Positions 1 through 12,323 of a DNA stretch of 64,000 bases are shown here, one piece after another. This DNA comes from an uncultured delta proteobacterium (lineage in GTDB: Bacteria > Desulfobacterota > Binatia > UBA9968). Within the stretch, counting starts at the first letter, position 1. The number at the start of each line of letters is the position of its first letter. A program made the translations under genes and the position numbers. Below the pieces are notes generated by a model. It saw nothing but the letters and a program-made list of their open reading frames with translations. It was not told the origin of the DNA and did no database searches. Location: NCBI GenBank assembly GCA_963816145.1, contig CAWFJP010000004.1:224001-288000 (forward strand), given 5' to 3'.

Positions 1-496
1 GCCCCGACGCTCCGGTACCGCCACCGCCGCCGGCGACTCCGCTGCCGGCGACCACGCCGGCATCGCCCTTGGCGAAGAGATTGCCGGCGCCGGCGGCGCT
101 GCCCTCCGCTTGAGTGGCTTGCGTGCCGGTGTTCCAGCCGGCTTTGGCCGCGCCGGCGTTATCCGGCAATGCCGCCAGCTGCTGCGGCTCTGCGACCGGT
201 TTTTCTTTGCTGTCTTCTTTGGTGTTGCCGGTCGGCGGCAATGGACTGGTTTCAAAAACCGGCTTGGAAAGCAATTTGGGCGCGGTGAGATTTTGCGGTT
301 TGGGTTTCGGCACCGGTGGCGGCGGTGCGACCTCAACTTTTTGCGGCTGCTCGACCCGCGGCAGCTCGATCAATTCCACCGGCATATTGACGGGCTTGAG
401 CGGTTTGGCGTGCATCACCAGCGCAGCCACGGGAATCAGGCTCAAATGAATTAACGACGAGGCGGTAAACGACGAGATCAGCCCGTGCTCATTCAT
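1..496 (-). CDS. tonB: TonB-family energy transducer, N-terminal part (runs off window start)
   Basis: Manual translation from ATG at 496 (ATGA overlap with exbD stop): MNEHGLISSFTASSLIHLSLIPVAALVMHAKP... TM anchor with SxxxH, then Pro/Lys-rich and Gly/Ala-rich linker; follows exbB-exbD. Confidence 0.8.
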   Translation of the reverse strand, partial: MNEHGLISSFTASSLIHLSLIPVAALVMHAKPLKPVNMPVELIELPRVEQPQKVEVAPPPPVPKPKPQNLTAPKLLSKPVFETSPLPPTGNTKEDSKEKPVAEPQQLAALPDNAGAAKAGWNTGTQATQAEGSAAGAGNLFAKGDAGVVAGSGVAGGGGGTGASG

Positions 497-906
497 TTTC
501 TTTGCTCCTTCGGTTTGACCGCGATCGCCATCTTGGCGACGTTGGCGCCGCGGGCGATATCCATGACTTCGACGACGCGGCCATGCTCGACGCCGTCGTC
601 GGCGTTGATGACAACCAACATCTCGGAGTTTTTCACCAGCTGCTGGCGCAGCGCATCGCCCAGAGCGGTCTTGTCGATCGCCTTTTGGTTAAGAAACAAC
701 CGGCCGTCTTTGTCGATGGTTACCGCCGCGCTCTCGGCCGGCGCCTGCTGACCGGCAGCGGCTTTCGGCAGATTGACCGGCATGCCTTTGAACTGGGTCA
801 TCGACAACGTCGAGATCATAAAAAAGACCAGGAGAAAGAAAATCGTGTCGATCATCGGGATGATCTCGATGCGCGCCTTTTTAATGCTGCGGCGTTGTAT
901 GCGCAT
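493..906 (-). CDS. exbD: Biopolymer transport protein ExbD/TolR
   Basis: IEIIPMIDTIFFLLVFFMI motif; C-terminal ADDGVEHGRVVEVMD. Confidence 0.93.
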   Translation of the reverse strand: MRIQRRSIKKARIEIIPMIDTIFFLLVFFMISTLSMTQFKGMPVNLPKAAAGQQAPAESAAVTIDKDGRLFLNQKAIDKTALGDALRQQLVKNSEMLVVINADDGVEHGRVVEVMDIARGANVAKMAIAVKPKEQRK

Positions 907-1514
907 CAGTGTTTCCCCATGCGCTCATGAAGCAGCAATTCGAGCGAGGAACTGAAGTGCTCCATTCGGTCCATTTCGCGCTCGACCTTCGCCGTGAAGT
1001 AGTTGTAGGAAACCAAGGTGAGAATCGCGATCAGCAAACCGGTGGCGGTGGCGATCAGCGCTTCGGCAACGCCGCCGGTGACCGCATGGGGCTGGCCCAT
1101 GCCGACCTCGGACATGACATCAAAGGAACCGATCATGCCGACCACCGTGCCGAGCAGTCCGAGCAATGGGGCGAGGGTGACGATCGTGTCGAGAACCCCC
1201 AGGCGGCTTTTGAGAATCGGAATTTCGGCCTGCGCCGCCGCTTCCATTGCTTTGGCCGGGGCCGGATTGCGGTGCGCGATGCCGGCAGCGAGGACCCGTG
1301 CAATGGGCTGGATCGACGTCTTGCCTAACTGCAACGCCTGGTCGAATTCGCCCTTGTCGACAAAAGCTAGGATTTGATGCAACGCATCCTTCGATTTTAG
1401 TTTGGTCCAATACAATAAGCGTTCGATTGTCAGGGCGACAGAGATTAGCGAACAAGCGAGGAGCGGAATCATGACGATCCCGCCTTTAACGATGATCGAA
1501 ACAAATGCCGACAT
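906..1514 (-). CDS. exbB: MotA/TolQ/ExbB proton channel protein
   Basis: APLLGLLGTVVGMI and GVAEALIATATGL motifs; start set at ATG 1514 (MSAFVSIIVKGG), not the 1802 ORF-track start. Confidence 0.92.
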   Translation of the reverse strand: MSAFVSIIVKGGIVMIPLLACSLISVALTIERLLYWTKLKSKDALHQILAFVDKGEFDQALQLGKTSIQPIARVLAAGIAHRNPAPAKAMEAAAQAEIPILKSRLGVLDTIVTLAPLLGLLGTVVGMIGSFDVMSEVGMGQPHAVTGGVAEALIATATGLLIAILTLVSYNYFTAKVEREMDRMEHFSSSLELLLHERMGKH

Positions 1515-1516
1515 GA

Positions 1517-1729
1517 CTATTGGACCAATCCTTTCTTGACTTGCTGATGATTGTTCTGCTCGCTGATCTCGGCGTCCTCCGCCACGCTTTGCATGGCGAG
1601 CCCGAGGTCGCGCAGATCGCCTCTCGAGATATGCAGAACGATGTTGCCGTAATGAAAGTGGGCGGTGTCTTGACTGCAATCGCAAAGCGAGACCGACCAC
1701 CCTCCTCCTCGGGATTTGATGCCGTACAT
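1517..1729 (-). CDS. Small hypothetical protein (70 aa) with CxC and HxH residues
   Basis: GGAGG RBS before ATG 1729; SLCDCSQDTAHFHYGNIVLHI; first gene after conserved element copy 1. Confidence 0.7.
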   Translation of the reverse strand: MYGIKSRGGGWSVSLCDCSQDTAHFHYGNIVLHISRGDLRDLGLAMQSVAEDAEISEQNNHQQVKKGLVQ

Positions 1730-1748
1730 TTTGACCTCCGCAAAAATC

Positions 1749-1817
1749 AAAAAGCCCGACGCTCTGCAACATTCGCTGCGAAGCGCCGGGCTCTGGATTC
1801 AAGATCTCTGGCCGCTG
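1749..1817 (-). promoter_or_regulatory. Conserved hexamer-repeat leader plus intrinsic terminator, copy 1
   Basis: Minus strand CAGCGGCCAGAGATCTTGAATCCAGAGCCCGGC...GTCGGGCTTTTT; near-identical copies at 2197-2262 and 4118-4185. Confidence 0.85.
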
Positions 1818-1823
1818 AGTGTG

Positions 1824-1883
1824 TTTGTATATTCAAAGCATAAGTATTTGTCAATACTTATAGCCGATATTTGTATAGACTAA
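1824..1883 (-). promoter_or_regulatory. Sigma70-like promoter with overlapping operator-like palindrome
   Basis: Minus strand TTGACA-17 bp-TATACA; perfect inverted repeat ATAAGTATT-N4-AATACTTAT (1840-1861) covers the -35; TTAG-N6-CAAA box at 1870-1883. Confidence 0.6.
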
Positions 1884-1963
1884 TATTAATTTATAACCTG
1901 CTAAAACTTTGTGTAAATTAACGATGTCTGTGTTCTCAATATCTCTCTTTGTTGTGCCATTAA

Positions 1964-2134
1964 TCACCGAGGATTTTGGTTATGCCGGTGCTCAGGTGAA
2001 ATAGGAATAATGATCTTTCGTTTACACCGGCGACACTTGATTTCGACCCCACCCGGCACTAGACGGGCCAGCAAATTGCCACAGTGACAGCGTAAGAGTT
2101 TAACCTCTGTGCCGTCGACGACTTTATCTTTCAT
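1964..2134 (-). CDS. Com-like Cys4 zinc-ribbon protein, paralog B (56 aa, below ORF-track cutoff)
   Basis: Manual translation: MKDKVVDGTEVKLLRCHCGNLLARLVPGGVEIKCRRCKRKIIIPISPEHRHNQNPR; RCxCGxLL...EIKCxRCKR pattern resembles phage Mu Com; paralog at 4216-4407. Confidence 0.8.
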   Translation of the reverse strand: MKDKVVDGTEVKLLRCHCGNLLARLVPGGVEIKCRRCKRKIIIPISPEHRHNQNPR

Positions 2135-2196
2135 TGGCGGTTTGACTCAGTTGACAGATAGCGCTTCGACAAGACATGGCATTTATTTTCTTCTCC

Positions 2197-2262
2197 AAAA
2201 AAAGAGCCCGGAATCGCATGTAACGCGATGCCGGGCTCTGGGTTCTCGACCTCTGGCCGCTC
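2197..2262 (-). promoter_or_regulatory. Conserved hexamer-repeat leader plus intrinsic terminator, copy 2
   Basis: Minus strand GAGCGGCCAGAGGTCGAGAACCCAGAGCCCGGCATCGCGTTACATGCGATTCCGGGCTCTTTTTTT. Confidence 0.85.
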
Positions 2263-2386
2263 GTCCGTTTACCGTTATGAAACTGTTAGTGTTGGTCGAC
2301 TCTAACTGTTCTCTAAAAAATTCGGGCCACAAAACTCCACTGCTCCAATTCGATTTGGCTATCGCGAGCCGAGATCGACATGGCCA

Positions 2387-3238
2387 TTACCAAAACCAGC
2401 TCGATTCTGACGAGGGACCGAACAGCGCGCAAACGAAATTCTCAAGCTCTAGATTGAACTTGATGATGACCGGATCCGAGCCGTGGGTCAGACCGAAACC
2501 GGCGCCAATATTGTACTCGATACCATGCGGCAGCTCGCCCCGGATGACCGGAAAGATGTAATGTTGCTGCTCCGCTCTTGGGTCGGTGTCGTTGATGTTG
2601 CCGATACCGCCGAAAAACTCGACACCCGGCGAAATCGACCGCATCCAGCGATAATAAATTCCCGAGGCGTAGCCGAATTCGAATCCTTTGTTCTTGTCTG
2701 GGCCGACCAATACTTTTTCAAAGATGGGATTAACCATCAAGGAAAGGCTGCCGAAGTCTTTTTGAATAATCGGGCGCAATTCCAGTTCTAGTTTCTGATC
2801 GTCGAATTGCGGTACACGGTTGTATCCCAATTCAATGTACCAACCGAGATCGATGGGCAGCTGCCCTTGATCGAACAGGCTGCCGCGCACTCTGAACTTT
2901 GAGCCGGCATATTGCAGGTCACGACCGTTGGGCTTGGCGATATTCACGTACGCCGCCGCTTCGATGCGATCGGAAAGCCCGTAGGTTGCCTCCAAAGCGG
3001 TGCGCCACATCGATTGGCTGGGTAAGGTGCCGCCTGAAGTTCCCTTGTCGCCCTGGGTGAAGCCATTGGCGACAACGCTATTTAGCCACTCAAGTTCAAG
3101 AACACCGCGCCCGAGCGTGCGGTACGGATAAACTTCAAATTCCCAGGGATCGACCTGCGCGGCGCCACAACCGGGGCGTAACAAATCTGCCAGGACGATG
3201 AGGCACGCTAAGGTTATCGATCGTAAATAAGTGTTCAT
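2387..3238 (-). CDS. Putative outer-membrane beta-barrel protein
   Basis: Signal peptide; alternating aromatic/Gly beta-strand pattern; operonic with cupredoxin and haem protein. Confidence 0.65.
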   Translation of the reverse strand: MNTYLRSITLACLIVLADLLRPGCGAAQVDPWEFEVYPYRTLGRGVLELEWLNSVVANGFTQGDKGTSGGTLPSQSMWRTALEATYGLSDRIEAAAYVNIAKPNGRDLQYAGSKFRVRGSLFDQGQLPIDLGWYIELGYNRVPQFDDQKLELELRPIIQKDFGSLSLMVNPIFEKVLVGPDKNKGFEFGYASGIYYRWMRSISPGVEFFGGIGNINDTDPRAEQQHYIFPVIRGELPHGIEYNIGAGFGLTHGSDPVIIKFNLELENFVCALFGPSSESSWFW

Positions 3239-3744
3239 TGTGAATGCTCCTTAGTTGTATTGGAACTTTGTTGGGATCGTTGGCTTGCTAACTCCGATTC
3301 GATCCACTGTAGTAACAGCAGCAGATCTGTTTGGTTTAGCGCTGCTTGAGGGTGCAGTATGCGGTAACTCCACGGCGGCATGTTTTCTTGACGCAAGGTG
3401 CGATCGATCCACTGAAGTTTGCGTAACTTTGTCGTCAGGTAATAGGAACCCCATTCGGAGAAGTTCAGCTGTTTGCGCCCCAACCCGACGTCCCGTTCCA
3501 ACCACCAAGAGAATGGCGCGACGTAGCCGTACCATGGCCAGCGGGTTTCATTGGAGTGGCAGTCGTAACAGGAGCGTATGAGAATAGCCGCAATTTTCGG
3601 TGGCGCTGCAGCGTCGTCACGTGTAGGAGGATCTTCATGGCGAATCCCGCGCGATAGTCCGACCATGGTAAGTCCGGCGACTGCGAGGAGCGCCGCGACG
3701 TGCTGCTTGTTTATTTTCACCGGCCGTCGATCTCCTATACCCAT
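3235..3744 (-). CDS. Haem-binding domain protein (c-type cytochrome)
   Basis: N-terminal hydrophobic segment; SCYDCHSNETRWPWY (CxxCH) and distal MPP. Confidence 0.85.
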   Translation of the reverse strand: MGIGDRRPVKINKQHVAALLAVAGLTMVGLSRGIRHEDPPTRDDAAAPPKIAAILIRSCYDCHSNETRWPWYGYVAPFSWWLERDVGLGRKQLNFSEWGSYYLTTKLRKLQWIDRTLRQENMPPWSYRILHPQAALNQTDLLLLLQWIESELASQRSQQSSNTTKEHSQ

Positions 3745-3750
3745 GAGTTT

Positions 3751-4089
3751 TTATTTGGCCGTGATCGTTCCTTCGGGAACATCCTGGTGAAAATCGTCGT
3801 AAATGTCATAACTGCCGGGCCGCAAAGCCGGTACGAGTACGATCACCGACTCACCGGGGCCAACGACCTTCTCACGGTTGAGCTTGAAGCTTTCGAATTC
3901 GATGGCTTCTTTGCTGCTGTTGGTGATTTTAATCTTAAACGGTTGATTCGCCGGGACGGTGATCGTTTGCGGAATAAAGCGGCGATTCTCGAAGCGCAAC
4001 TCGACCACCGCGTCGTCGGCTTGGGCGCGCCTTGCTAACGCGATGGCAAAGAGGAAAAGCAGGGTAATTGTAATCCTCGAATGCTTCAT
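3751..4089 (-). CDS. Periplasmic cupredoxin-domain protein (EfeO-N/FtrB-like)
   Basis: Signal peptide; EFES..LNREKVV and PGSYDIYDDFH motifs. Confidence 0.85.
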   Translation of the reverse strand: MKHSRITITLLFLFAIALARRAQADDAVVELRFENRRFIPQTITVPANQPFKIKITNSSKEAIEFESFKLNREKVVGPGESVIVLVPALRPGSYDIYDDFHQDVPEGTITAK

Positions 4090-4117
4090 CTAGTTCTCTC
4101 CTTGGCTATTAAAAAGC

Positions 4118-4185
4118 AAAAAGCCCGGTTACCGCCGTTGTCTGTGCGGAACGCCGGGCTCTGGGTTCAAGACCTCTGGCCGCTG
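4118..4185 (-). promoter_or_regulatory. Conserved hexamer-repeat leader plus intrinsic terminator, copy 3
   Basis: Minus strand CAGCGGCCAGAGGTCTTGAACCCAGAGCCCGGC...CCGGGCTTTTTGCTTTTT, 30 nt after the Com-like gene A stop and upstream of the cupredoxin RBS. Confidence 0.85.
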
Positions 4186-4215
4186 AATTAGATTTATCAA
4201 CGTTCTCAATGATGG

Positions 4216-4407
4216 TTACATATCGATCCTGACAGTGCCCTTGGTGGCGAAAGGTACGACCACTTGGCGCTTACAGCGGCGGCATTTGAGTTCGACGCCG
4301 TCGGCGACCACCCGGGCTAACAAGCTGCCACAGCTGCATCGCAGCGAGTTGTCTGGCTTTGTTGCCGCCGCTATCTCGCGGTTCTTTTGTTGTAGTCGTG
4401 AATCCAA
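4216..4407 (-). CDS. Com-like Cys4 zinc-ribbon protein, paralog A
   Basis: LRCSCGSLLARVVADGVELKCRRCKRQVVVPF; probable TTG start at 4407 directly after the FTR1 stop (start uncertain). Confidence 0.8.
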   Translation of the reverse strand: MDSRLQQKNREIAAATKPDNSLRCSCGSLLARVVADGVELKCRRCKRQVVVPFATKGTVRIDM

Positions 4408-4408
4408 T

Positions 4409-6391
4409 TTACTTCGCTTTCTTGCGCTGACGGGCCAGCCAAAAGGACGTAGCGACGAAGGCAAAAAGCATCAATCCTTGAGCCGCCAGGGTTTCAACGG
4501 TCGGATGGATGCCGAGCAAGGGGATCGCGTGCGGCACGCTCGTCGGTGTGGTGGAGATCCACTGGGCGGCTTGTAATTCTTTGACGCCGTTGCCGGCGAA
4601 GATAAACGCCATGATATAGAGCAGCGTTCCAGTGGCGCTCAAGAAATATTTGATCGGAAGTTTGAGCCCGAGCTTTAAAATCGCAAAGGTCGCGACCCCC
4701 AATAACCCGAGCCCGAGCGCCAGGCCCCAAATAATCGAGCCGTGACTATCCTCATTTTGCATCCACAGCGCTTGATAAAACAGCACCAGTTCGAAGGCCT
4801 CGCGATAGACGGCGAAAAACGAGATGCCGATAAGTCCGAAGATGCGCTGGGTCGATATTCCCGATTTTACTTTCTGTTCGATGAACTCATGCCAGCGTTT
4901 GACTTCCGAGCGGGTGTGCAGCCAGTAGCCGACATAGAAAAGCGCCACGGCCGCGAAGACGGATATGAATCCTTCCATGCTTTCGCGGTGGCGACCGCTG
5001 AGCGTGAGCACGGTTTGCGTCGCTACCCAGGTCAATCCGCCGCAGAAGAGCGCGAGAATCCAACCGAGATGAATGTAGCGGATCGCTTCGGTTGCGCCCA
5101 TGACGCGCAACATGCCGATGATGCTGGCCAGGATCAGTGCCGCTTCGAGTCCTTCGCGAAAGATGATCAAGGCTGAATTCGCGAAGGCATAATAGCCCGA
5201 GTAGCCGTCGTCGCGCGCCATTGCCTGGGTGGCGCGATCGAGTTGCACTTCGATTTCTACATGCTGTTTTTGAATTTCTTCCGCCGGCGCGCCTTGCTTG
5301 ATGCTGTTGCGCAGCTGGGTAAATTGCGCTTCCAGACCGCGTCCCAAGCTCGCATCTTTGGCGACTAGTGTTGGTTCGGCAAGTTCATAGCCGTCAAGAT
5401 ACGCTTCAACGGCTTTTTGATAGGCCTGATCTTTTTCCCCTTTGGCATAAAGCGCGACGGCTTCGCGCAGAAGTCCCTTGGCAACTGAAAGGGGATCGGA
5501 CAGCGAGGCTTCCAACATGCCGCGGCGCAGGTAGGCAAGCGCTGCCAGCGCCTGAGACTCGTCTTTGGTCTGTTGTTGGAGCCGGTCCAACAGCACTTCG
5601 TCGGCGCTGGTCGCCAGGGTTGCAACCGTTTGCAATTCGCCGGGCAAGCCTTTCGCCTTGACCATCTGCGCGCCGGTTTTGGCCGCTTCGTCGGTGAATC
5701 GCAGAGAAAATACGTAGAATGCGACCTGCCAGCGTTGCTCTTCGCTAAGGGCGGCAAACGATGCCATGGCCGTGCCCTCGATGCCGAAGCTCGCGGTGTT
5801 AAATACTTTGAACGGCGACAGGCCGCCGATGCGCTCGGGATCGGTGAAGTTGGCCGGCAGCGGCGTTTTGGGTTTCATGCTTTCGCGGCCTGGGCCGTCG
5901 CCTTTGCCGGTGGCGCCATGGCATTGCGCGCAATTGTCGTCGTAGATTTTCTTGCCGCTCGCCATGGACGGCAAGCGGCGCGGGTAGGGGACGATATTGT
6001 AGGCCGCCAGCAGTTTTTCTTTGGTTGCCTTGGCAGTTTCGGCGACCGCTTTGGGATCGGCTTTGTCCGTCACCTGCTGCGCCAGGGATTTTACCAAGGC
6101 TTCGACGCCGGCTTTATCGCCTTTGTCAGCGGCTTTGAGCTGGGCGAATAATTCCAAACCGCGCTTGGCGAATTCTTGCATTTCGCCGTACTCGTCCGGG
6201 TTCAAGACTTTGCCGTCTTTGACGGCATTTTTGTAATCGCTGCCCAGGTAGTCGAGCAGCGCGACCAGCTTCTTGGCCTGTTCTTGCGCCAATACCGGAG
6301 CCGCGGCGAAGAGTAGTAGCCATATCGCTAAGAATGAGGCGGTGATCTTGCTACTCGTGAAAGCGCGTCGTTGGGAAATCCCGTTGGTCAT
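4409..6391 (-). CDS. Cytochrome c / FTR1-family iron permease fusion (PbrT/EfeU-like)
   Basis: Signal peptide; CAQCHG haem motif; two RExxE motifs (FREGLEA, YREAFE) in the C-terminal multi-TM domain. Confidence 0.92.
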   Translation of the reverse strand: MTNGISQRRAFTSSKITASFLAIWLLLFAAAPVLAQEQAKKLVALLDYLGSDYKNAVKDGKVLNPDEYGEMQEFAKRGLELFAQLKAADKGDKAGVEALVKSLAQQVTDKADPKAVAETAKATKEKLLAAYNIVPYPRRLPSMASGKKIYDDNCAQCHGATGKGDGPGRESMKPKTPLPANFTDPERIGGLSPFKVFNTASFGIEGTAMASFAALSEEQRWQVAFYVFSLRFTDEAAKTGAQMVKAKGLPGELQTVATLATSADEVLLDRLQQQTKDESQALAALAYLRRGMLEASLSDPLSVAKGLLREAVALYAKGEKDQAYQKAVEAYLDGYELAEPTLVAKDASLGRGLEAQFTQLRNSIKQGAPAEEIQKQHVEIEVQLDRATQAMARDDGYSGYYAFANSALIIFREGLEAALILASIIGMLRVMGATEAIRYIHLGWILALFCGGLTWVATQTVLTLSGRHRESMEGFISVFAAVALFYVGYWLHTRSEVKRWHEFIEQKVKSGISTQRIFGLIGISFFAVYREAFELVLFYQALWMQNEDSHGSIIWGLALGLGLLGVATFAILKLGLKLPIKYFLSATGTLLYIMAFIFAGNGVKELQAAQWISTTPTSVPHAIPLLGIHPTVETLAAQGLMLFAFVATSFWLARQRKKAK

Positions 6392-6394
6392 TGG

Positions 6395-7162
6395 CTAGCT
6401 TCCTTGAGTCGATAGTAGAAAACGTTTTCTCAGCCAGGCGCTGATGCCGTCCATCATCAAGACGATCACCAGAACTAGTAGCAGCACGGTGGCTAGCCGA
6501 CGATAATCGAGATTCTGCAGATAGATTTGAATCACCAAACCGAGACCGCCGGCGCCGACAAATCCGAGAACCGACGAGGCGCGGATGTTGTATTCGAGCA
6601 TGAACAGCACCTGGGCGAGGATCGCATTGGCGGTTTCCGGGATAATCACAAAGCGCACCAGTTGCAGCTTCGATGCACCGGTGCTCTGCACCGCTTCGAT
6701 GATTTCCGGATCGGTGCCTTCGAACAGGTCGGCGTAGATTTTCGCCAGGTAGCCGACCGTATAGGCGGCAATACCGAAGGTGCCGGCCAGCGGTCCGAGG
6801 CCGACCAGAATGACGAAGACGATCGCCCACAGCAGCACCGGAATGGTGCGTATGCCAGCGGCGATGAATCTGGCCAAGCTCGAGAGCCAATCTGAAAAAA
6901 GTCGGCGCGTGCCGAGCACGCTCAAAGGCAGCGAAGCGATGAAACCCAAGAGCGTTCCGGCAAAGGACATTTCGACGGTTTCCCATAGCGCGGCGCCGGC
7001 GGTGGGCAGGATACTCATGTCGGGCGGCACCATTTCGCCGCCGAGAATCCTCAGGTTGCGAAAGCCGCGCGCTAAACGCTCGCCATCGAAGAGCCCTAAA
7101 TGGGCCAGGGTCGCAAGCAGGAACAAACCGACGGTGAGCGGCAAAAAGAATTTCGGCATCAC
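6395..7162 (-). CDS. phnE: PhnE/PtxC-like ABC permease
   Basis: EAA-like loop (IIEAVQSTGASK); LEYNIRASSVLGFVGAGGLG signature. Confidence 0.85.
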   Translation of the reverse strand: MMPKFFLPLTVGLFLLATLAHLGLFDGERLARGFRNLRILGGEMVPPDMSILPTAGAALWETVEMSFAGTLLGFIASLPLSVLGTRRLFSDWLSSLARFIAAGIRTIPVLLWAIVFVILVGLGPLAGTFGIAAYTVGYLAKIYADLFEGTDPEIIEAVQSTGASKLQLVRFVIIPETANAILAQVLFMLEYNIRASSVLGFVGAGGLGLVIQIYLQNLDYRRLATVLLLVLVIVLMMDGISAWLRKRFLLSTQGS

Positions 7163-7890
7163 GCGGTTGCCTCAGCCGGCTCGGTTTCAAGATACTCGCT
7201 GCCGATGTAGCCCTTGCCGATCGCGCCGTCTTTCATGGCGAGCACTTCTTCGCCGAACTTCCGCGCCAGACCGAGGCGGTGCATGCTCATGATGAATGTG
7301 ATGTTTTCTGTCTCGGCAGCGGCGCGGATACGGCCGAGAATCTCGTAGGCCAAAGTGAGATCGAGATCCGAGGCGAACTCGTCGGCGATGACGATGCGCG
7401 GCCGCTGCAATAGCGTGCGCGCGATGGCGACCCGTTGACGCTCGCCGCCGCTCAGCTGGAATACCCGATTGTTGCTCTTGTGGTCGATACCCATCATGGC
7501 GAGCGCCGCATGGGCGGCGTCGATCTCCGCGCGCGGAAATATGCCGAATAGAGTTTGGGCATCGCCAAGCCGGCCGAGCGCGCCCATCAGCACGTTGTCG
7601 AGGGCGGAGAGATTGCGCACCAGACCCAATTGTTGCGGAATGTAACCAATCAGCGAGCTCAAATTTCGCCGGCTGCCGCCTTCCAGGGGTTGGCCGAACA
7701 CGGCAATTTTCCCGCGGCTTGGCGGCAATATTCCCGCCATGACACGCAGCAATGTGGTCTTGCCGGTTCCCGAAGGACCCATGATCACCGTGTGCTTGCC
7801 GGCGGGAATCGACAGCGAGACATTGCGCAGGACGGGCTCGTGGCGCGGATAGGAAAACCAAACCTGGTCTGCGTGCAATGCCGTAACCAT
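7159..7890 (-). CDS. phnC: PhnC-like ABC ATPase
   Basis: Walker A GPSGTGKT; LSGGERQRVAIAR; IADE. Confidence 0.85.
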   Translation of the reverse strand: MVTALHADQVWFSYPRHEPVLRNVSLSIPAGKHTVIMGPSGTGKTTLLRVMAGILPPSRGKIAVFGQPLEGGSRRNLSSLIGYIPQQLGLVRNLSALDNVLMGALGRLGDAQTLFGIFPRAEIDAAHAALAMMGIDHKSNNRVFQLSGGERQRVAIARTLLQRPRIVIADEFASDLDLTLAYEILGRIRAAAETENITFIMSMHRLGLARKFGEEVLAMKDGAIGKGYIGSEYLETEPAEATA

Positions 7891-7904
7891 ATATGCGCTG
7901 TCGC

Positions 7905-8852
7905 CTACAATCGCTCGGTGAACTTCAAGTTGGCGAGCTTTAAATATTTCGTTAGCCCGGCCAGATGCTCCTGCGCCGTGGTCGGCTTGAAACCGACGAA
8001 AATACTCGAAATAAACGTGCGCATGAGATCGCGATGTTCCGGTGCGCCGAGCTTGATCACGCTCTGGATCGTCCGGGAGCGCAGAGGTTCTTTGAACTCG
8101 CGGCTGAGCACGACGGCGTGGGAGGGGATCGGCCCTTGATCCTCGATGGAGCGTGTGCCGGCGAGGACTTCGTTATAGAGCTTCTCGGGCACGTCGCCGG
8201 CGATGATTGTGGTATCGACTTGGCCCTGTTTGAGCGCCTGCCAGCACTGGCCATAACCGCCGCCGAACAGCACTTCCTTAAAGAAGGATTTAGGGTCGGC
8301 TTCCTTGCCTTCGCCGGGTTGGAGCAGGTTCAGCTCAACCATCCGGCCCATGGGCGCGACGAATCCGGAAGTGGAAATTGGGCTGGGAAAGCACGCCGAC
8401 TTGCCTTTCAGCGATGCCAAATCTTTGTAAGGTGAGTCGGGATTGACCACCCAGTAGGAATAATAATACGGAGCGTCGACTTTTTCTTTGCCGTGGAGTA
8501 CTTGGCGCACCTCGGCCAACGCTACCTCGGCGCCGCCAAGGCGGACTGCCAACTGAGCCGGCCAGGCTGACATGAAGGCGACCTGCGCATGGCCAAAGCG
8601 CAGCGATTCCACCACCGCGGCGAAGCTGGTTGGCACATAGAGCTCCACTTTGGTTTTGCCGCCGAGGCTTTGTTCGAGAAATTTTTGCAGTGGCTTGGCT
8701 TTGTTGAGCATCTCATCGCTGGCCACTGTCGGTTGGATCGCGATGACGAGTTTTCCTTGAGCACGTGCCGGTTCGGAGAAAGCTATCAACAGCCAAAACA
8801 ATGCCGAAAATGTTCCCCGGATGATTCCTAGATTATTGGCGTTTAACATCAA
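7905..8852 (-). CDS. PhnD/PtxB-like (phosphate/phosphite/phosphonate family) ABC substrate-binding protein
   Basis: Signal peptide; AVVESLRFGHAQVAF and STSGFVAP motifs; substrate not determinable from sequence. Confidence 0.8.
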   Translation of the reverse strand: MMLNANNLGIIRGTFSALFWLLIAFSEPARAQGKLVIAIQPTVASDEMLNKAKPLQKFLEQSLGGKTKVELYVPTSFAAVVESLRFGHAQVAFMSAWPAQLAVRLGGAEVALAEVRQVLHGKEKVDAPYYYSYWVVNPDSPYKDLASLKGKSACFPSPISTSGFVAPMGRMVELNLLQPGEGKEADPKSFFKEVLFGGGYGQCWQALKQGQVDTTIIAGDVPEKLYNEVLAGTRSIEDQGPIPSHAVVLSREFKEPLRSRTIQSVIKLGAPEHRDLMRTFISSIFVGFKPTTAQEHLAGLTKYLKLANLKFTERL

Positions 8853-8910
8853 TGAAGGCTCCCTTGATCTCTTGTCGCAACTTGATTATTAAGGTGGCAG
8901 GCAAGATTTA

Positions 8911-8973
8911 GTTTAGACGTAAAACAAATTCATGCTTCGCCATCCAAAATACTTATTCTTCGTATAGTCGAAG
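8911..8973. promoter_or_regulatory. Candidate DtxR/MntR-type operator in divergent promoter
   Basis: Palindrome CTTCG-TATAGT-CGAAG (8958-8973); further TTMG half-sites at 8913 and 8936. Confidence 0.5.
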
Positions 8974-8993
8974 CTAGAAAGTTTGTCAAATCT

Positions 8994-9659
8994 ATGGAAG
9001 AAATTAAAGTCACCCATGCGTTAGAAGATTATCTCAAGGCTATTTATGTACTTATGGAAGACGGGCAGCCGGTTATAGCCGCCCGGATGGCTGCCGAGGC
9101 CGGGGTTTCGGCATCGACGATCTTCGCCACGGTTCGGCGGTTAGAAAAAGATGGCTACGTGACGATCAATCGGCGCAAAGAAATTCATTTGACCAGTGAG
9201 GGTAAGAAGATTGCGGAACGAACGATTCGGCGCCATTTCCTGACCGAGCGGTTTCTGACCGATCTGTTGGGACTGGATTGGGTCAAGGCGCATCAGGAAG
9301 CGCACCGTCTGGAACATGCGATTTCCCAAGAAGTTGAAGAGCGCTTGGCGAAATTGCTAAATAATCCGCTGACCTGTCCCCACGGCAATCGCATTCCCGG
9401 GGCTGCTACAGGCAACCTGAGCAAGACTACGCCACTCAATGACGCCAACGACGGCCAAACCGTCGAGCTCGATTTCATTACCGAAGGCGGCGAACGCGAC
9501 GTGCGCCTATTAAGTTACTTACAGGAGCATGGTCTGGTCCCGGGGGCGAAGGTGTTGGTCGTCGACGTCGCGCCGTCCCTCGGCATGATGACGCTCAAGG
9601 TCGGCGATGACCAGTTTTCTTTGGGCATCGAGGCGGCTAAAAAAATCCGCGTGCACTAA
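8994..9659 (+). CDS. DtxR/MntR/IdeR-family metal-dependent repressor with FeoA-like C-terminal domain
   Basis: EDYLKAIY; RRHFLTERFL; AHQEAHRLEHAIS; CPHGNRIP. Confidence 0.93.
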   Translation: MEEIKVTHALEDYLKAIYVLMEDGQPVIAARMAAEAGVSASTIFATVRRLEKDGYVTINRRKEIHLTSEGKKIAERTIRRHFLTERFLTDLLGLDWVKAHQEAHRLEHAISQEVEERLAKLLNNPLTCPHGNRIPGAATGNLSKTTPLNDANDGQTVELDFITEGGERDVRLLSYLQEHGLVPGAKVLVVDVAPSLGMMTLKVGDDQFSLGIEAAKKIRVH

Positions 9660-9676
9660 ATCTTTTCAGCGCGGGG

Positions 9677-9967
9677 CTAGTTCGAACTCGCCGGCTCTGA
9701 CGCTTCACTGGCCGGCGCGGCGGTTTGTGAATCTGCCTCGGCTTGCCGCCCGGCGAGCTCGTTGGCGAGAAACTCAATCTGGTCGATCAGCGGAATGTCC
9801 CGGTCGATGACGATCAATTCCCGTCCTTTGACCCGGCAACTCCCGCTGTGAGCGCGATAGCCGACTTCGCGCAAAAGCTTCTCCATGCGCACTTGAATAT
9901 TCAGCTGTTTGGCGCTGACGATCAGATCCTGAAGGCGGGCTTCCTGACGATTCTTCGGTCGCTGCAT
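9677..9967 (-). CDS. Hypothetical protein
   Basis: 96-aa ORF with plausible RBS, fills the gap between genes. Confidence 0.65.
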   Translation of the reverse strand: MQRPKNRQEARLQDLIVSAKQLNIQVRMEKLLREVGYRAHSGSCRVKGRELIVIDRDIPLIDQIEFLANELAGRQAEADSQTAAPASEASEPASSN

Positions 9968-10157
9968 TTATCCAACTTCTCTAGAGTAGGGCGGATTATC
10001 TCCTAAAGGCGCGCGGATGTAAACGGTCGGCGGCGATTCCGTTTGTAATTAGTCCCGGCCTTGTTATCGTGTCGATAGTGCCCCAGGCCTAGGGGAGAAA
10101 TAGCTGACGGCGATCGCCGGTTACGGTGACTGCACCGGCAATCTAACGGAGAGACCT

Positions 10158-10994
10158 ATGATCAAAAACATCTTGATTCCGCTCGACGGCTCCGAGCATT
10201 CCAAGGCGGCGCTCGATTACGCGATCTGGCTCGTGCGCGGCTTTGACGGCATGTTATTGGGCCAGCATGTGATCGATACGGTTTCCCTCGAAGGAACCTT
10301 CTTCCACGATGTCTCAGGCTCGCTCGGATTCGAACCCTATCTCGATTTTTCCACCAAGATGCGCGAGCTCCTCGATGACCGCGGCAAACTTATTCTCGAC
10401 TACTTCCGCGAGACCTGCGCGGCAAAAAATATTCGGGTGCAGACCTTTCTCGATACCGGGCTGATCGCCAATGAAATCTGCGAGCGGGCCAAGGTTGCCG
10501 ATCTGGTAGTGATCGGTCATCGCGGCGTCAACGAAGGCTTCACCGCTGGCATGCTCGGCTCGACCGCCGAAACGATCATTCGCAAATGTCCGCGGCCGAT
10601 CTTTGTATCGACCAAGCGCTTCGACAACATTGCAAACCCATTGCTAGCCTACGATGGCAGCCAGCGGGCGAGCTCGGCGATGGAATCGGCGGCGGAGTTT
10701 TGTACAGTGCTCAAGCTGCCTCTCACGGTGCTCTCTATCGCCCGGGAAGAAGCGGCGGCGCAGGCGATCTTGCAGCAGGCCAAGGCCTATCTCGGCTCCT
10801 ACGCCATCGACGTCAAGTACGAGACTGCGCGCGGTTACCCCGAGCAGAAAATCATCGAGTATCTGGTCAATCTCAAATACGACTTGCTGTTCATCGGCGC
10901 CCACGGCCACCGGCGAATTATTAAGATGGTGCTCGGCGGCACGACGGAATATGTATTGCGCAATGCGCCCTGTCCGGTTTTTCTGAACAGATAA
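10158..10994 (+). CDS. Universal stress protein (tandem Usp domains)
   Basis: ILIPLDGSEHS; DLVVIGHRG; LGSTAE; LGGTTEYVLRNAPCPV. Confidence 0.92.
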   Translation: MIKNILIPLDGSEHSKAALDYAIWLVRGFDGMLLGQHVIDTVSLEGTFFHDVSGSLGFEPYLDFSTKMRELLDDRGKLILDYFRETCAAKNIRVQTFLDTGLIANEICERAKVADLVVIGHRGVNEGFTAGMLGSTAETIIRKCPRPIFVSTKRFDNIANPLLAYDGSQRASSAMESAAEFCTVLKLPLTVLSIAREEAAAQAILQQAKAYLGSYAIDVKYETARGYPEQKIIEYLVNLKYDLLFIGAHGHRRIIKMVLGGTTEYVLRNAPCPVFLNR

Positions 10995-11010
10995 CAGCCG
11001 TTCAAGGGTT

Positions 11011-11057
11011 CATCCCTCGATACGCGACCTTCGGCCCCTACTCGGGACAAACGGTTT
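11011..11057. repeat. Short REP-like extragenic palindrome
   Basis: TCCCTCGATAC...CTACTCGGGACAAACGG imperfect inverted repeat between usp and the nitrilase gene. Confidence 0.35.
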
Positions 11058-11072
11058 AAGGGTTTCGAAAAT

Positions 11073-11876
11073 ATGAAGTTCATTGCCGCCGCGGTGCAGA
11101 TGTTGGCTTCGGATGACAAAGCGGCGAATCTCGCCGAAGCTGAGCGTTGGGTGCGCGAGGCGGCTGGCCTAGGTGCGCGTCTCGTGGTCCTACCGGAAGT
11201 TTTTATTTGGCGCGGTAACAAAAAATTAGAAAGAGAGTTTGCCGAAGCGATTCCCGGACCGACTGCGAACCGACTTGCCGGATTGGCGCGGGAGTTGAAG
11301 ATTTTCTTACTTGGCGGTTCGATTCTCGAAACGATTCCCGCCAGCGCGAAAGCCTACAACACGAGTCTGCTCTTTGGTCCGGCGGGCGAACTGCTAGCGG
11401 CCTACCGTAAGATTCATCTCTTCGATGTCGACCTGGCCAACGGCGTGTCGCTGCGCGAGTCGGAGACCCGCGCTCATGGCGGCGATGTCGTGGCGGTGCA
11501 GACCGAGCTTGGGACGATGGGTTTGTCGGTTTGCTACGATCTGCGTTTCCCCGAACTGTATCGCGGTTTAGCCGACCAGGGCGCGCATTTGATCTTCGTC
11601 CCGTCGGCGTTCACGGCCTTCACCGGCCAGGCGCATTGGGAAATTCTTCTCCGTGCCCGCGCCATCGAGAACCAAACCTACATCATCGCCGCCGATCAAT
11701 ATGGCAAAGGCGCCAAAAGCTTCGAATGCCACGGCCACTCGATGATCGTCGATCCCTGGGGTACTATACTCGCCGAGCTCCCTGACGGTCCCGGCGTCAT
11801 CACGGCGGAAATCGATCTCGACCATCTCACCAAAGTGCGCGCCGAGCTGCCGGCGCTGCAGCACCGCAGATTGTAG
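11073..11876 (+). CDS. Carbon-nitrogen hydrolase (Nit1/deaminated glutathione amidase-like)
   Basis: Glu-Lys-Cys triad: LPE, YRKIHLFDV, VCYDLRFPELYR; ARAIENQ. Confidence 0.92.
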   Translation: MKFIAAAVQMLASDDKAANLAEAERWVREAAGLGARLVVLPEVFIWRGNKKLEREFAEAIPGPTANRLAGLARELKIFLLGGSILETIPASAKAYNTSLLFGPAGELLAAYRKIHLFDVDLANGVSLRESETRAHGGDVVAVQTELGTMGLSVCYDLRFPELYRGLADQGAHLIFVPSAFTAFTGQAHWEILLRARAIENQTYIIAADQYGKGAKSFECHGHSMIVDPWGTILAELPDGPGVITAEIDLDHLTKVRAELPALQHRRL

Positions 11877-12323
11877 GGCACGAATGCTTGCACCCTCGTG
11901 CCGGTTATCTGATAGGAACTCTACCACCTACGTTGAGTCCAGCCAGATCTACTGTTCGGGCACTGTGCGAATGGCGGATTCTAGGCGGTGTTGAGCATGG
12001 CTGTCATTGCCGGGATTGTCATTTTAGAATCGATGGTCGGCGCATAGAACACGCGGGTGAAACTCAGATTGTCTAGTTTCTGACGGCGCTGATGCCCGCA
12101 AAAATCGCTGGGGCTCCCGTGCGCAGCGCGATTACAGCTAGCGTTGTGGTCTCCGATTGCCGAATTTTTTGTCGGAAGGCTACTTCTCAGAATCGCTTAT
12201 GCTGTGTCTAACGGTATCTCATCGCGAATTTGGACATTCAGGTAATCGAACCGCGTTGCACCAGACAAGACATAACATGCATCCGCGTTGACATCATGAA
12301 TTGCCCGGCTTAAGACTGACTCG

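Follow-up and report, generated by a model that had tools for sequence, protein, structure and literature searches.

The 64,000-nucleotide (nt) stretch of DNA analysed here, referred to as a whole as the window, comes from an uncultured delta proteobacterium (GTDB lineage Bacteria; Desulfobacterota; Binatia; UBA9968) and corresponds to positions 224,001 to 288,000 of contig CAWFJP010000004.1 (NCBI GenBank assembly GCA_963816145.1). Near its start is an iron-uptake locus in which two small genes for Com-like zinc-ribbon proteins, Com-A and Com-B, are interleaved with three copies of a 32-nt element, and each copy runs into an intrinsic terminator (Table 1). According to the list of open reading frames (ORFs), every gene in this region is on the minus strand, which places the element copies on the coding strand. 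Com-A starts with a TTG codon immediately after the stop codon of the cytochrome c-FTR1 gene. Both small genes proposed by the original prediction, made from the letters alone, are present as ORFs. Comparative evidence points to an undescribed, protein-controlled read-through switch that would occur in several bacterial phyla.

Table 1. Features of the iron-uptake locus, with positions in the window. CM, covariance model; E, E-value.
Feature	Position	Strand	Evidence and remarks
Cytochrome c-FTR1 iron permease fusion gene	4409-6391	-	Pfam FTR1 and Cytochrom_C; directly upstream of Com-A
Com-A, Com-like zinc-ribbon gene (63 aa)	4216-4407	-	ORF; RCSCGSLLAR...GVELKCRRCKR
Element copy 3	4153-4184	-	About 31 nt past the Com-A stop codon; CM R1 85.4 bits, E 2.7e-16
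Intrinsic terminator 3	4108-4162	-	RNAfold -28.1 kcal/mol, z -2.16; followed by U tract
Cupredoxin-like gene	3751-4089	-	Pfam Cupredoxin_1, E 3.8e-27; first gene after terminator 3
Haem-binding-domain gene	3235-3744	-	Pfam Haem_bd, E 1.6e-36
Gene for 283-aa protein	2387-3238	-	ORF; no Pfam or NCBIfam match; 'outer-membrane protein' in the original prediction
Element copy 2	2230-2261	-	Upstream of Com-B; CM R1 64.5 bits
Intrinsic terminator 2	2196-2239	-	RNAfold -34.8 kcal/mol, z -4.72; U tract
Com-B, Com-like zinc-ribbon gene (56 aa)	1964-2134	-	Match to profile A2, E 2.8e-23
Promoter-like site TTGACA-17 nt-TATACA	1826-1860	-	Read from the sequence; 20-bp palindrome TAAGTATTGACAAATACTTA over the -35 box
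Element copy 1	1785-1816	-	Leader of small ORF-exbB-exbD-tonB; CM R1 74.5 bits
Intrinsic terminator 1	1741-1794	-	RNAfold -37.8 kcal/mol, z -3.97; U tract
Conserved 70-aa ORF (MYGIKSR..WSVSLCDCSQDTAHFHYGN..KKGLVQ)	1517-1729	-	Between terminator 1 and exbB
exbB	906-1514	-	Pfam MotA_ExbB, E 1.3e-32
exbD	493-906	-	Pfam ExbD, E 3.2e-31
TonB-like gene, start only	to position 1	-	Open-ended ORF, runs off the window
DtxR/MntR-family regulator gene	8994-9659	+	NCBIfam DtxR model, E 5.1e-38, below curated cut-off; divergent from the operon

All three copies match the 32-nt element AGCGGCCAGAGRTCNNGAAYCCAGAGCCCGGC exactly, and none of 100 dinucleotide shuffles contains a match, even with 3 mismatches allowed, which bears out the three coding-strand copies of the original prediction. 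When the 7.8-Mb assembly is searched with a 28-nt version and up to 3 mismatches, only four copies are found, all on one strand and within 12 kb of each other (C4:216995-228189). A CM search of the genome recovers these four sites (E 2.7e-16 to 2e-11), with no further match below E 0.3. A dispersed repeat of the repetitive extragenic palindromic (REP) type, which the original prediction had named as a finding that would count against it, was therefore rejected: there are just four genomic copies, all in one iron locus, and relatives carry 1-3 copies per genome. No curated Rfam 15 family matches the elements (cmscan, window 1-12000, E <=10), and the four weak matches elsewhere are unrelated. 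At 11243-11354 (minus strand) there is a weak Rfam match to the ALIL pseudoknot (16.7 bits, E 1.1), which is well below the gathering threshold and probably due to chance.

The fourth copy, AGAGGCCAGCGGTCACGAACCCAGAGCCC, is located 7 kb beyond the start of the window (C4:217034-217061, minus strand; about 11034-11061 in the extended locus L005). It has a hairpin with a poor U tract, and is preceded by a DUF4198-like gene and followed by ferritin-like, katG, feoA and feoB ORFs, all named by reading their translations. This 'ferritin-type' variant recurs in relatives (L024, L030, L031, L035).

The element has the consensus (A)G(C/A)-GGCC-N-G-(A/C)-G, followed by a hairpin with a 3-7 nt loop and by CC-N-GAGCCC. 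Its CC-N-GAGCCC end doubles as the 5′ foot of a strong intrinsic terminator; in terminator 3, this foot is AGAGCCCGG, the 3′ end of element copy 3. The three window copies can be aligned along the element itself and, after a variable loop, at CCGGGCU and the U tract. The CCGGGCU with its U tract and the RNAfold energies of the three terminators (-28.1 to -37.8 kcal/mol, z -2.2 to -4.7) agree with the earlier proposal that the last hexamer is the terminator foot. A simple terminator scan missed all three because their loops are longer than its limit, and its counts were no higher than those in shuffles. The accompanying parse of the element into four hexamers fits this genome but fails in relatives, where the third 'hexamer' varies in both sequence and length. 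As this segment nevertheless stays complementary to G-R-U, we prefer to describe the element as two CC-N-GAG-like repeats around a 3-bp hairpin.

RNAalifold analysis of 26 aligned copies from relatives returns this hairpin, G-R-U with A-Y-C, together with the terminator stem, whose two innermost pairs covary. At the middle position of the hairpin, 10 sequences have a GC pair, 9 have AU and 7 have GU, and none has a broken pair. Across 66 rows aligned to the CM, an alignment that was fitted to the model and hence favours the hairpin, it is 98.4% paired, with a covariation score that 0 of 500 shuffles reach. Among 75 distinct elements defined by pattern and taken with their flanks, all three pairs are kept in 69; the types are GGU/ACC (37), GAU/AUC (13), GGU/AUC (10), GGC/GCC (3), GGU/GCC (3), GAC/GUC (1) and others. 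With the inner two pairs left free, both are complementary in 55 of 60 distinct cores (a count that leaves out the G005 locus), whereas shuffles average 43.2 with a maximum of 49, and 0 of 2000 reach 55. The same 60 cores contain 13 G.U cells and a single A.C cell, and this excess of G.U assigns the structure to the RNA of the coding strand. The 3-bp hairpin is the only element structure with covariation support, and the conserved bases are mostly unpaired. A minimum free energy (MFE) mini-hairpin of GGCC with GGUC was rejected: GAUC variants break its pairing without compensation, whereas changes in G-R-U:A-Y-C are compensated.

In isolation, the 26-nt core folds with an MFE of -3.6 to -5.6 kcal/mol. 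An outer GGC:GCC stem and the inner G-R-U:A-Y-C hairpin are then separated by a symmetric 4x4 internal loop that reads CAGA on either side. This fold and the terminator are mutually exclusive, as both use the same GCC. No antiterminator made of RNA alone was found at the elements.

Com-A and Com-B share 60% identity across 35 residues, and neither matches a Pfam or NCBIfam model. A set of 5.8 billion proteins contains 183 homologues, which are mostly 63 aa long, in agreement with the length of Com-A; several are labelled 'phage FluMu protein Com' by JGI, and some originate from metagenome-assembled genomes (MAGs) of 'Candidatus Binatia'. An alignment of 22 sequences has the invariant core RCxCG-LLAR----GVE-KCRRCKR. 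Its four cysteines are also invariant, the first pair being CxC (RCxCG) and the second CRRC; the corresponding pairs in Mu Com are CKNC and CPRC. When the profile of these 22 sequences (A2) is compared with Mu Com (NC_000929) using hhalign, the two align over 39 columns with 95% probability (E 3.6e-8), with a one-residue gap at the first knuckle (CxC vs CxxC). By profile comparison, then, Com-A and Com-B are Com-like. An exhaustive profile search retrieved 1216 clusters (50% identity) at E <=0.001, 650 of them at E <=1e-10. Tandem double-Com proteins of 103-127 aa with two CxC..CxxC modules also exist (P0122, P0123, P0126, P0145, P0159, P0191). A tblastn search of Com-A against 50,697 phage records gave chance-level matches only, and a search of PDB sequences with the profile gave a single match to ribosomal protein uS14 (E 0.046) that was not taken as meaningful.

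The distribution of element and gene was compared in 61 genomes, comprising that of the window and 60 relatives (G005 included). With up to 2 mismatches, the element is found in 21 of these genomes, compared with one match for a reversed control pattern, and the Com-like profile matches 23; when G005 is left out, the counts are 20 and 22 of 60. All 21 genomes with the element carry a Com-like gene, and both features are confined to one family. In nearly all of them, the gene is just upstream of an element and shares its contig and strand, whereas G036 has gene and element on separate contigs. The gene-only genomes are G027, where a degenerate element directly follows the gene (20.8 bits, filters off), and G002, where the weak gene match carries a stop codon.

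A wider scan, with one genome per species, yielded 275 stretches that encode a relative, of which 80 loci (570 kb) were kept. By record titles, these belong to Binatia, Myxococcota, Nitrospirota, Methylomirabilota, Acidobacteriota and Thermodesulfobacteriota MAGs, whose labels may be wrong, and to Sorangium isolates. A relaxed pattern matches on the strand of the gene in 60 loci and on the other strand in 2, and its reversed control in 0; CM matches coincide with the pattern positions in public Com-gene loci. The first element starts within 80 nt of the Com stop codon in 38 loci, at 81-400 nt in 12, at 401-1500 nt in 8 and further away in 1, with 20-80 nt being the commonest spacing. A run of four or more T residues follows within 110 nt downstream of the element in 45 of 59 loci. 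The co-occurrence that the original prediction proposed to check thus holds across genomes and phyla, with the element on the same strand and directly downstream (21/21 genomes; 60/80 loci), and such linkage shows a functional tie between gene and element. A phylum-wide scan with the relaxed pattern, which matched 111 of 301 genomes, was uninformative because, in GC-rich genomes, its reversed control gave matches at a similar rate.

The genes around the element are concerned with iron. Among 105 ORFs in the first two positions after it, Pfam matches at E <=1e-5 are MotA_ExbB (11), DUF6662 (8), FMN_bind (8), Cupredoxin_1 (6), Imelysin (5), ExbD (5), TonB_C (2), DUF4198 (2), FeoA (1), PepSY_TM (1) and CCP_MauG (1), with no other families listed. 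The 72 ORFs directly upstream of the Com-like gene include 37 with FTR1 (34 of these with cytochrome c), 7 Fur, one DtxR-type, one FeoB and a few unrelated singles. These flanking ORFs were called by a simple script, and some short ones are spurious. Taken together, the upstream genes (FTR1 or Fur) and the downstream ones (ExbBD/TonB, cupredoxin and imelysin) agree with the iron-uptake locus of the original prediction. In four loci from Myxococcota- or Nitrospirota-labelled MAGs (L063, L089, L109, L107), the order is fur, com-like gene, element, and an ORF of 425-465 aa without a Pfam family.

The 70-aa ORF, like the 283-aa protein, has no useful Pfam or NCBIfam match. Its homologues precede exbB in seven other loci (L058, L064, L088, L111, L071, L100, L115), and in a protein atlas it falls into clusters of hypothetical proteins only, in Binatota. 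Outside the window, at L005 17466-17657 (minus strand), a 63-aa ORF ending in YNLRITKNGKLILTK adjoins a 719-aa TonB-dependent-receptor-like ORF; we take it to resemble the small HemP/HmuP-type regulators of haem uptake.

A transcript from the promoter-like site before element copy 1 is predicted to begin a few nt before the element; a simple promoter scan did not list this site. At 1841-1860 (minus strand), a perfect 8+4+8 palindrome, TAAGTATT-GACA-AATACTTA, overlaps the -35 box. It occurs once in the window, with no further copies there, and similar promoters in relatives carry ACTAAT..ATTAGT palindromes in the corresponding position. It may be an operator of a DtxR/Fur-type regulator. One metatranscriptome contains a 210-nt contig identical to 1908-2117 (Com-B), and the same run has near-identical contigs for 616-830 (exbD, 2 letters differ) and 3120-3303 (1 letter). 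These contigs are a weak hint that the locus is expressed, being sparse, showing no ends, strand or level, and possibly reflecting DNA carry-over.

We consider it probable that the system is one of protein-dependent transcription antitermination, exerted at the RNA level by the Com-like protein. Every computable part of the earlier reading, a Com-like gene with a terminator-overlapping element in an iron locus, held. The default state would be termination, with the element folding weakly and the shared GCC being taken by the much stronger terminator; as the terminators are strong on their own and no RNA-only antiterminator was found, the element would have to serve an activator. The Com-like protein is the best-placed candidate, because its gene is coupled to the element across phyla and its phage relative opens a hairpin via a similar motif. 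It would bind the two CC-N-GAG-like repeats, probably as two copies, since the pairing of the repeats and the existence of tandem fusions both hint at two modules for each site. Once bound, it may stabilize the weak fold of the element or simply hold CC-N-GAGCCC, so that the terminator could not nucleate. With the 5′ arm of the terminator held in this way, RNA polymerase would read through into the iron-uptake genes.

The position of element copy 2 before Com-B and of copy 3 behind Com-A further suggests a feed-forward cascade under iron-responsive promoters. It would start with the cytochrome c-FTR1 operon, which yields Com-A. Com-A would then open terminator 3, giving access to the cupredoxin, haem-binding and 283-aa genes, and terminator 2, giving access to Com-B. 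The Com proteins would in turn open terminator 1, ahead of the small ORF-exbBD-tonB, and the fourth copy, ahead of the ferritin-like, katG and feoAB genes. Binding, the direction of antitermination, its stoichiometry and this cascade are all steps that we infer. Any dependence of the Cys4 site on Fe or Zn is pure speculation. A broader version of the model, in which the Com-like protein is an iron or zinc sensor (CxC...CxxC, binding RNA in one metal state) that gates terminators in Binatia and ribosome-binding sites in Myxococcota, and so governs, in parallel with Fur/DtxR, an iron regulon that acts after initiation in at least five phyla, appears doubtful to us.

Several observations weigh against antitermination by a Com-like protein. 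The Com-likeness of the two peptides is upheld by the profile-profile alignment, but the Pfam Com model PF10122 (Zn_ribbon_Com/COG4416), which matches Mu Com itself (E 2.7e-9), matches neither at E <=10 in a search where the HMMER filters drop most weak matches. Their first cysteine pair is CxC, not CxxC, and the repeats of the element read CC-N1-GAG as opposed to the CC(N)2-3GAG selected by Mu Com in the available passages of its description. Because the outer GGC:GCC stem of the core never varies, covariation offers no test of it. In the genome G008, an element-like site (34.4 bits) occurs with no Com-like match. The strict pattern is missing from 20 of the 80 Com-gene loci; diverged forms were seen by eye directly after the gene in eight of these 20 (L055, L067, L085, L097, L102, L103, L110, L112), and the five Sorangium loci show no form of the element. 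None of the 80 loci with the canonical element is from a cultured organism. The loci are moreover related and not independent, many being from one genus, and linkage does not give the direction of an effect. The case rests on comparative evidence, with the sole RNA run consisting of low-depth contigs that cannot show ends.

One diverged form has GAGGCCAGAGACC..GUCCAGAGCC with the hairpin GAC/GUC, and L107 combines a strict-pattern match with a diverged form. The site in G008 (G008:C9; L117 1501-1569, plus strand) has a terminator and comes after a gene named DUF4198-like from its translation, in a genome that is 99% complete; it could be an orphan or relic copy.

The Com-like protein could bind the element to other ends, such as promoting termination, protecting 3′ ends (including that of its own mRNA), or autoregulating translation or stability. 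The element and terminator are commonly 20-80 nt past the Com stop codon and form the 3′ end of the com transcript, an arrangement that suits these roles, and the linkage data are silent on the sign of any effect. We nevertheless judge this unlikely: the terminators are strong unaided, there is no visible RNA-only antiterminator for a protein to disrupt, and copies 1 and 4, with their counterparts in relatives, are in 5′ leaders after promoters and before regulated genes, which is the layout of an attenuator that needs an activator. A related proposal is that the short terminated leaders (promoter, element and terminator, about 75-80 nt) act as small RNAs, or decoys, that titrate the Com-like protein, in the way that CsrB titrates CsrA. 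The promoter-like site directly before element copy 1 and its relatives agrees with this, and termination there would free an RNA of about 75 nt with both repeats. The elements are, however, always in cis and co-oriented with the downstream iron genes at operon spacing, and decoys would need protein binding as well and may simply coexist with attenuation; as the whole explanation, they are very improbable.

Another idea is that of a DNA operator, bound by the Com-like or another DNA-binding protein as a roadblock or promoter-proximal site, to which we assign a very low probability. Copy 1 is at about +1 to +35 of the promoter-like site, and the two repeats could be half-sites. An operator is difficult to reconcile, though, with the strict strand bias (60 loci on the gene's strand and 2 on the other), with the 13 G.U against 1 A.C in the hairpin, G.U being a pair that makes sense only in the RNA of this strand, with the constant fusion of the element to the 5′ arm of a hairpin, or with the many copies that follow a stop codon with no promoter in sight. 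The element could also act in the manner of a riboswitch and sense a metal or small molecule, or be recognized by another factor, with the Com-like gene merely a co-regulated neighbour. Conserved sequence over the 5′ arm of a terminator is also how riboswitch expression platforms are designed, and the linked genes concern iron homeostasis. A riboswitch would, however, leave unexplained why, in 50 of 80 loci from several phyla, the element comes right behind a Com-like gene. The lack of an Rfam match at E <=10 and the presence of only a 3-bp hairpin with mostly unpaired conserved bases, as is typical of protein sites and not of ligand pockets, also argue against it, as does the resemblance of the repeats to the motif selected by Mu Com (PMC6483171). 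We therefore regard the riboswitch as quite improbable and retain antitermination by the Com-like protein as the preferred reading.

For decades, Com has stood as a lone phage curiosity whose role is to activate the translation of one gene. Should antitermination prove correct, its relatives would form a sizeable cellular family (the 1216 clusters above) controlling iron-uptake and TonB energy-transduction genes after transcription has started, and a new protein family would join the short list of RNA-binding attenuation regulators. Binatia, Myxococcota, Nitrospirota, Acidobacteriota and Methylomirabilota (as labelled in the record titles), for most of which there is no genetic system, would thereby have a second regulatory layer beneath Fur/DtxR. 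With a protein of about 60 aa and a site of about 26 nt, the system would lend itself readily to in vitro tests and might serve as a compact orthogonal switch.

A parallel in manner of working is the BglG/SacY/LicT family, in which a weak antiterminator fold, the ribonucleic antiterminator (RAT), overlaps the 5′ arm of a terminator and is stabilized by a sequence-specific RNA-binding protein. Here, too, the element overlaps the 5′ arm of the terminator, as at AGAGCCCGG, and the regulator may share the operon. The linked protein is, in contrast, a 56-63 aa zinc ribbon without CAT or PRD and without control by the sugar phosphotransferase system, and the RNA has another sequence and fold. By these sequence features, the Com-like system would resemble the RAT type in how it works and is not a member of that family. 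TRAP, PyrR, HutP and the ANTAR regulators likewise bind leader RNA and decide between terminator and read-through, and their ligands are known. The proposed switch shares this logic, whereas the protein folds and RNA targets differ (arrays of GAG/UAG triplets, dual hexaloop hairpins and others).

Com-like genes outside phages have been noted in Pseudomonas, where they precede the bacteriocin gene llpA and other cargo genes, with a regulatory role that 'remains to be explored' according to the passages available (PMC6240691). Like those in Binatia, they are chromosomal and directly upstream of a presumed target. They differ in matching PF10122 and in being linked to bacteriocin, tailocin or levansucrase genes, and those passages of PMC6240691 describe neither a terminator-overlapping element nor a link to iron. 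A full-text literature search, which left subscription journals largely uncovered, returned no description of Com-like genes that are found in iron loci or accompanied by an element overlapping a terminator, in line with the original statement that the system was not recognized as a described one.

A further comparison is with Mu Com and mom. According to the parts of PMC6483171 available, in vitro selection (systematic evolution of ligands by exponential enrichment, SELEX) with Mu Com gave NGAGNNCC(N)2-3GAGNNCCNN, with the core CC(N)2-3GAG, and the target is a short hairpin adjoining the structure that inhibits mom translation; this agrees with the background on which the original prediction drew. 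Close to the mom GUG, on its 5′ side, the Mu leader (NC_000929) contains CCUGCGAG and CCACGGAG, which are 12 nt apart. In the element, GGCC-N-GMG and CC-N-GAG are 16 nt apart around a hairpin and adjoin an inhibitory hairpin. Judged by sequence, the repeats bear a resemblance to the motif reported for Mu Com and are not identical to it. In both systems, the protein is a zinc ribbon of about 60 aa that has the core R-C..C..LL....(I/V)E(I/L)(K/R)C.RCKR, the regulator gene is directly upstream of its target and, as far as the available account of mom goes, a CC..GAG hairpin is beside an inhibitory hairpin. Unlike com of Mu, the genes described here are chromosomal and in iron-uptake loci, not phage; there are several target sites per genome, the repeat is CC-N1-GAG, and the first cysteine pair is CxC.

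Since the inhibitory hairpin here is an intrinsic terminator, the gated step would be transcription, as opposed to translation in Mu. The Myxococcota variants may be closer to Mu in this respect. In the MFE structures of five loci that are labelled Myxococcota and lack a U tract, GGGAG..GCUCG, a short way ahead of the AUG, is paired with the second repeat, such that a hairpin formed from this repeat would hold the Shine-Dalgarno sequence (z -0.3 to -2.1, which is weak); RNAalifold of seven such variants did not recover this hairpin, returning the invariant GGC:GCC stem only. The principle of attenuation is already known from the systems above, and what would be new is a Com-family protein that carries out protein-dependent attenuation.

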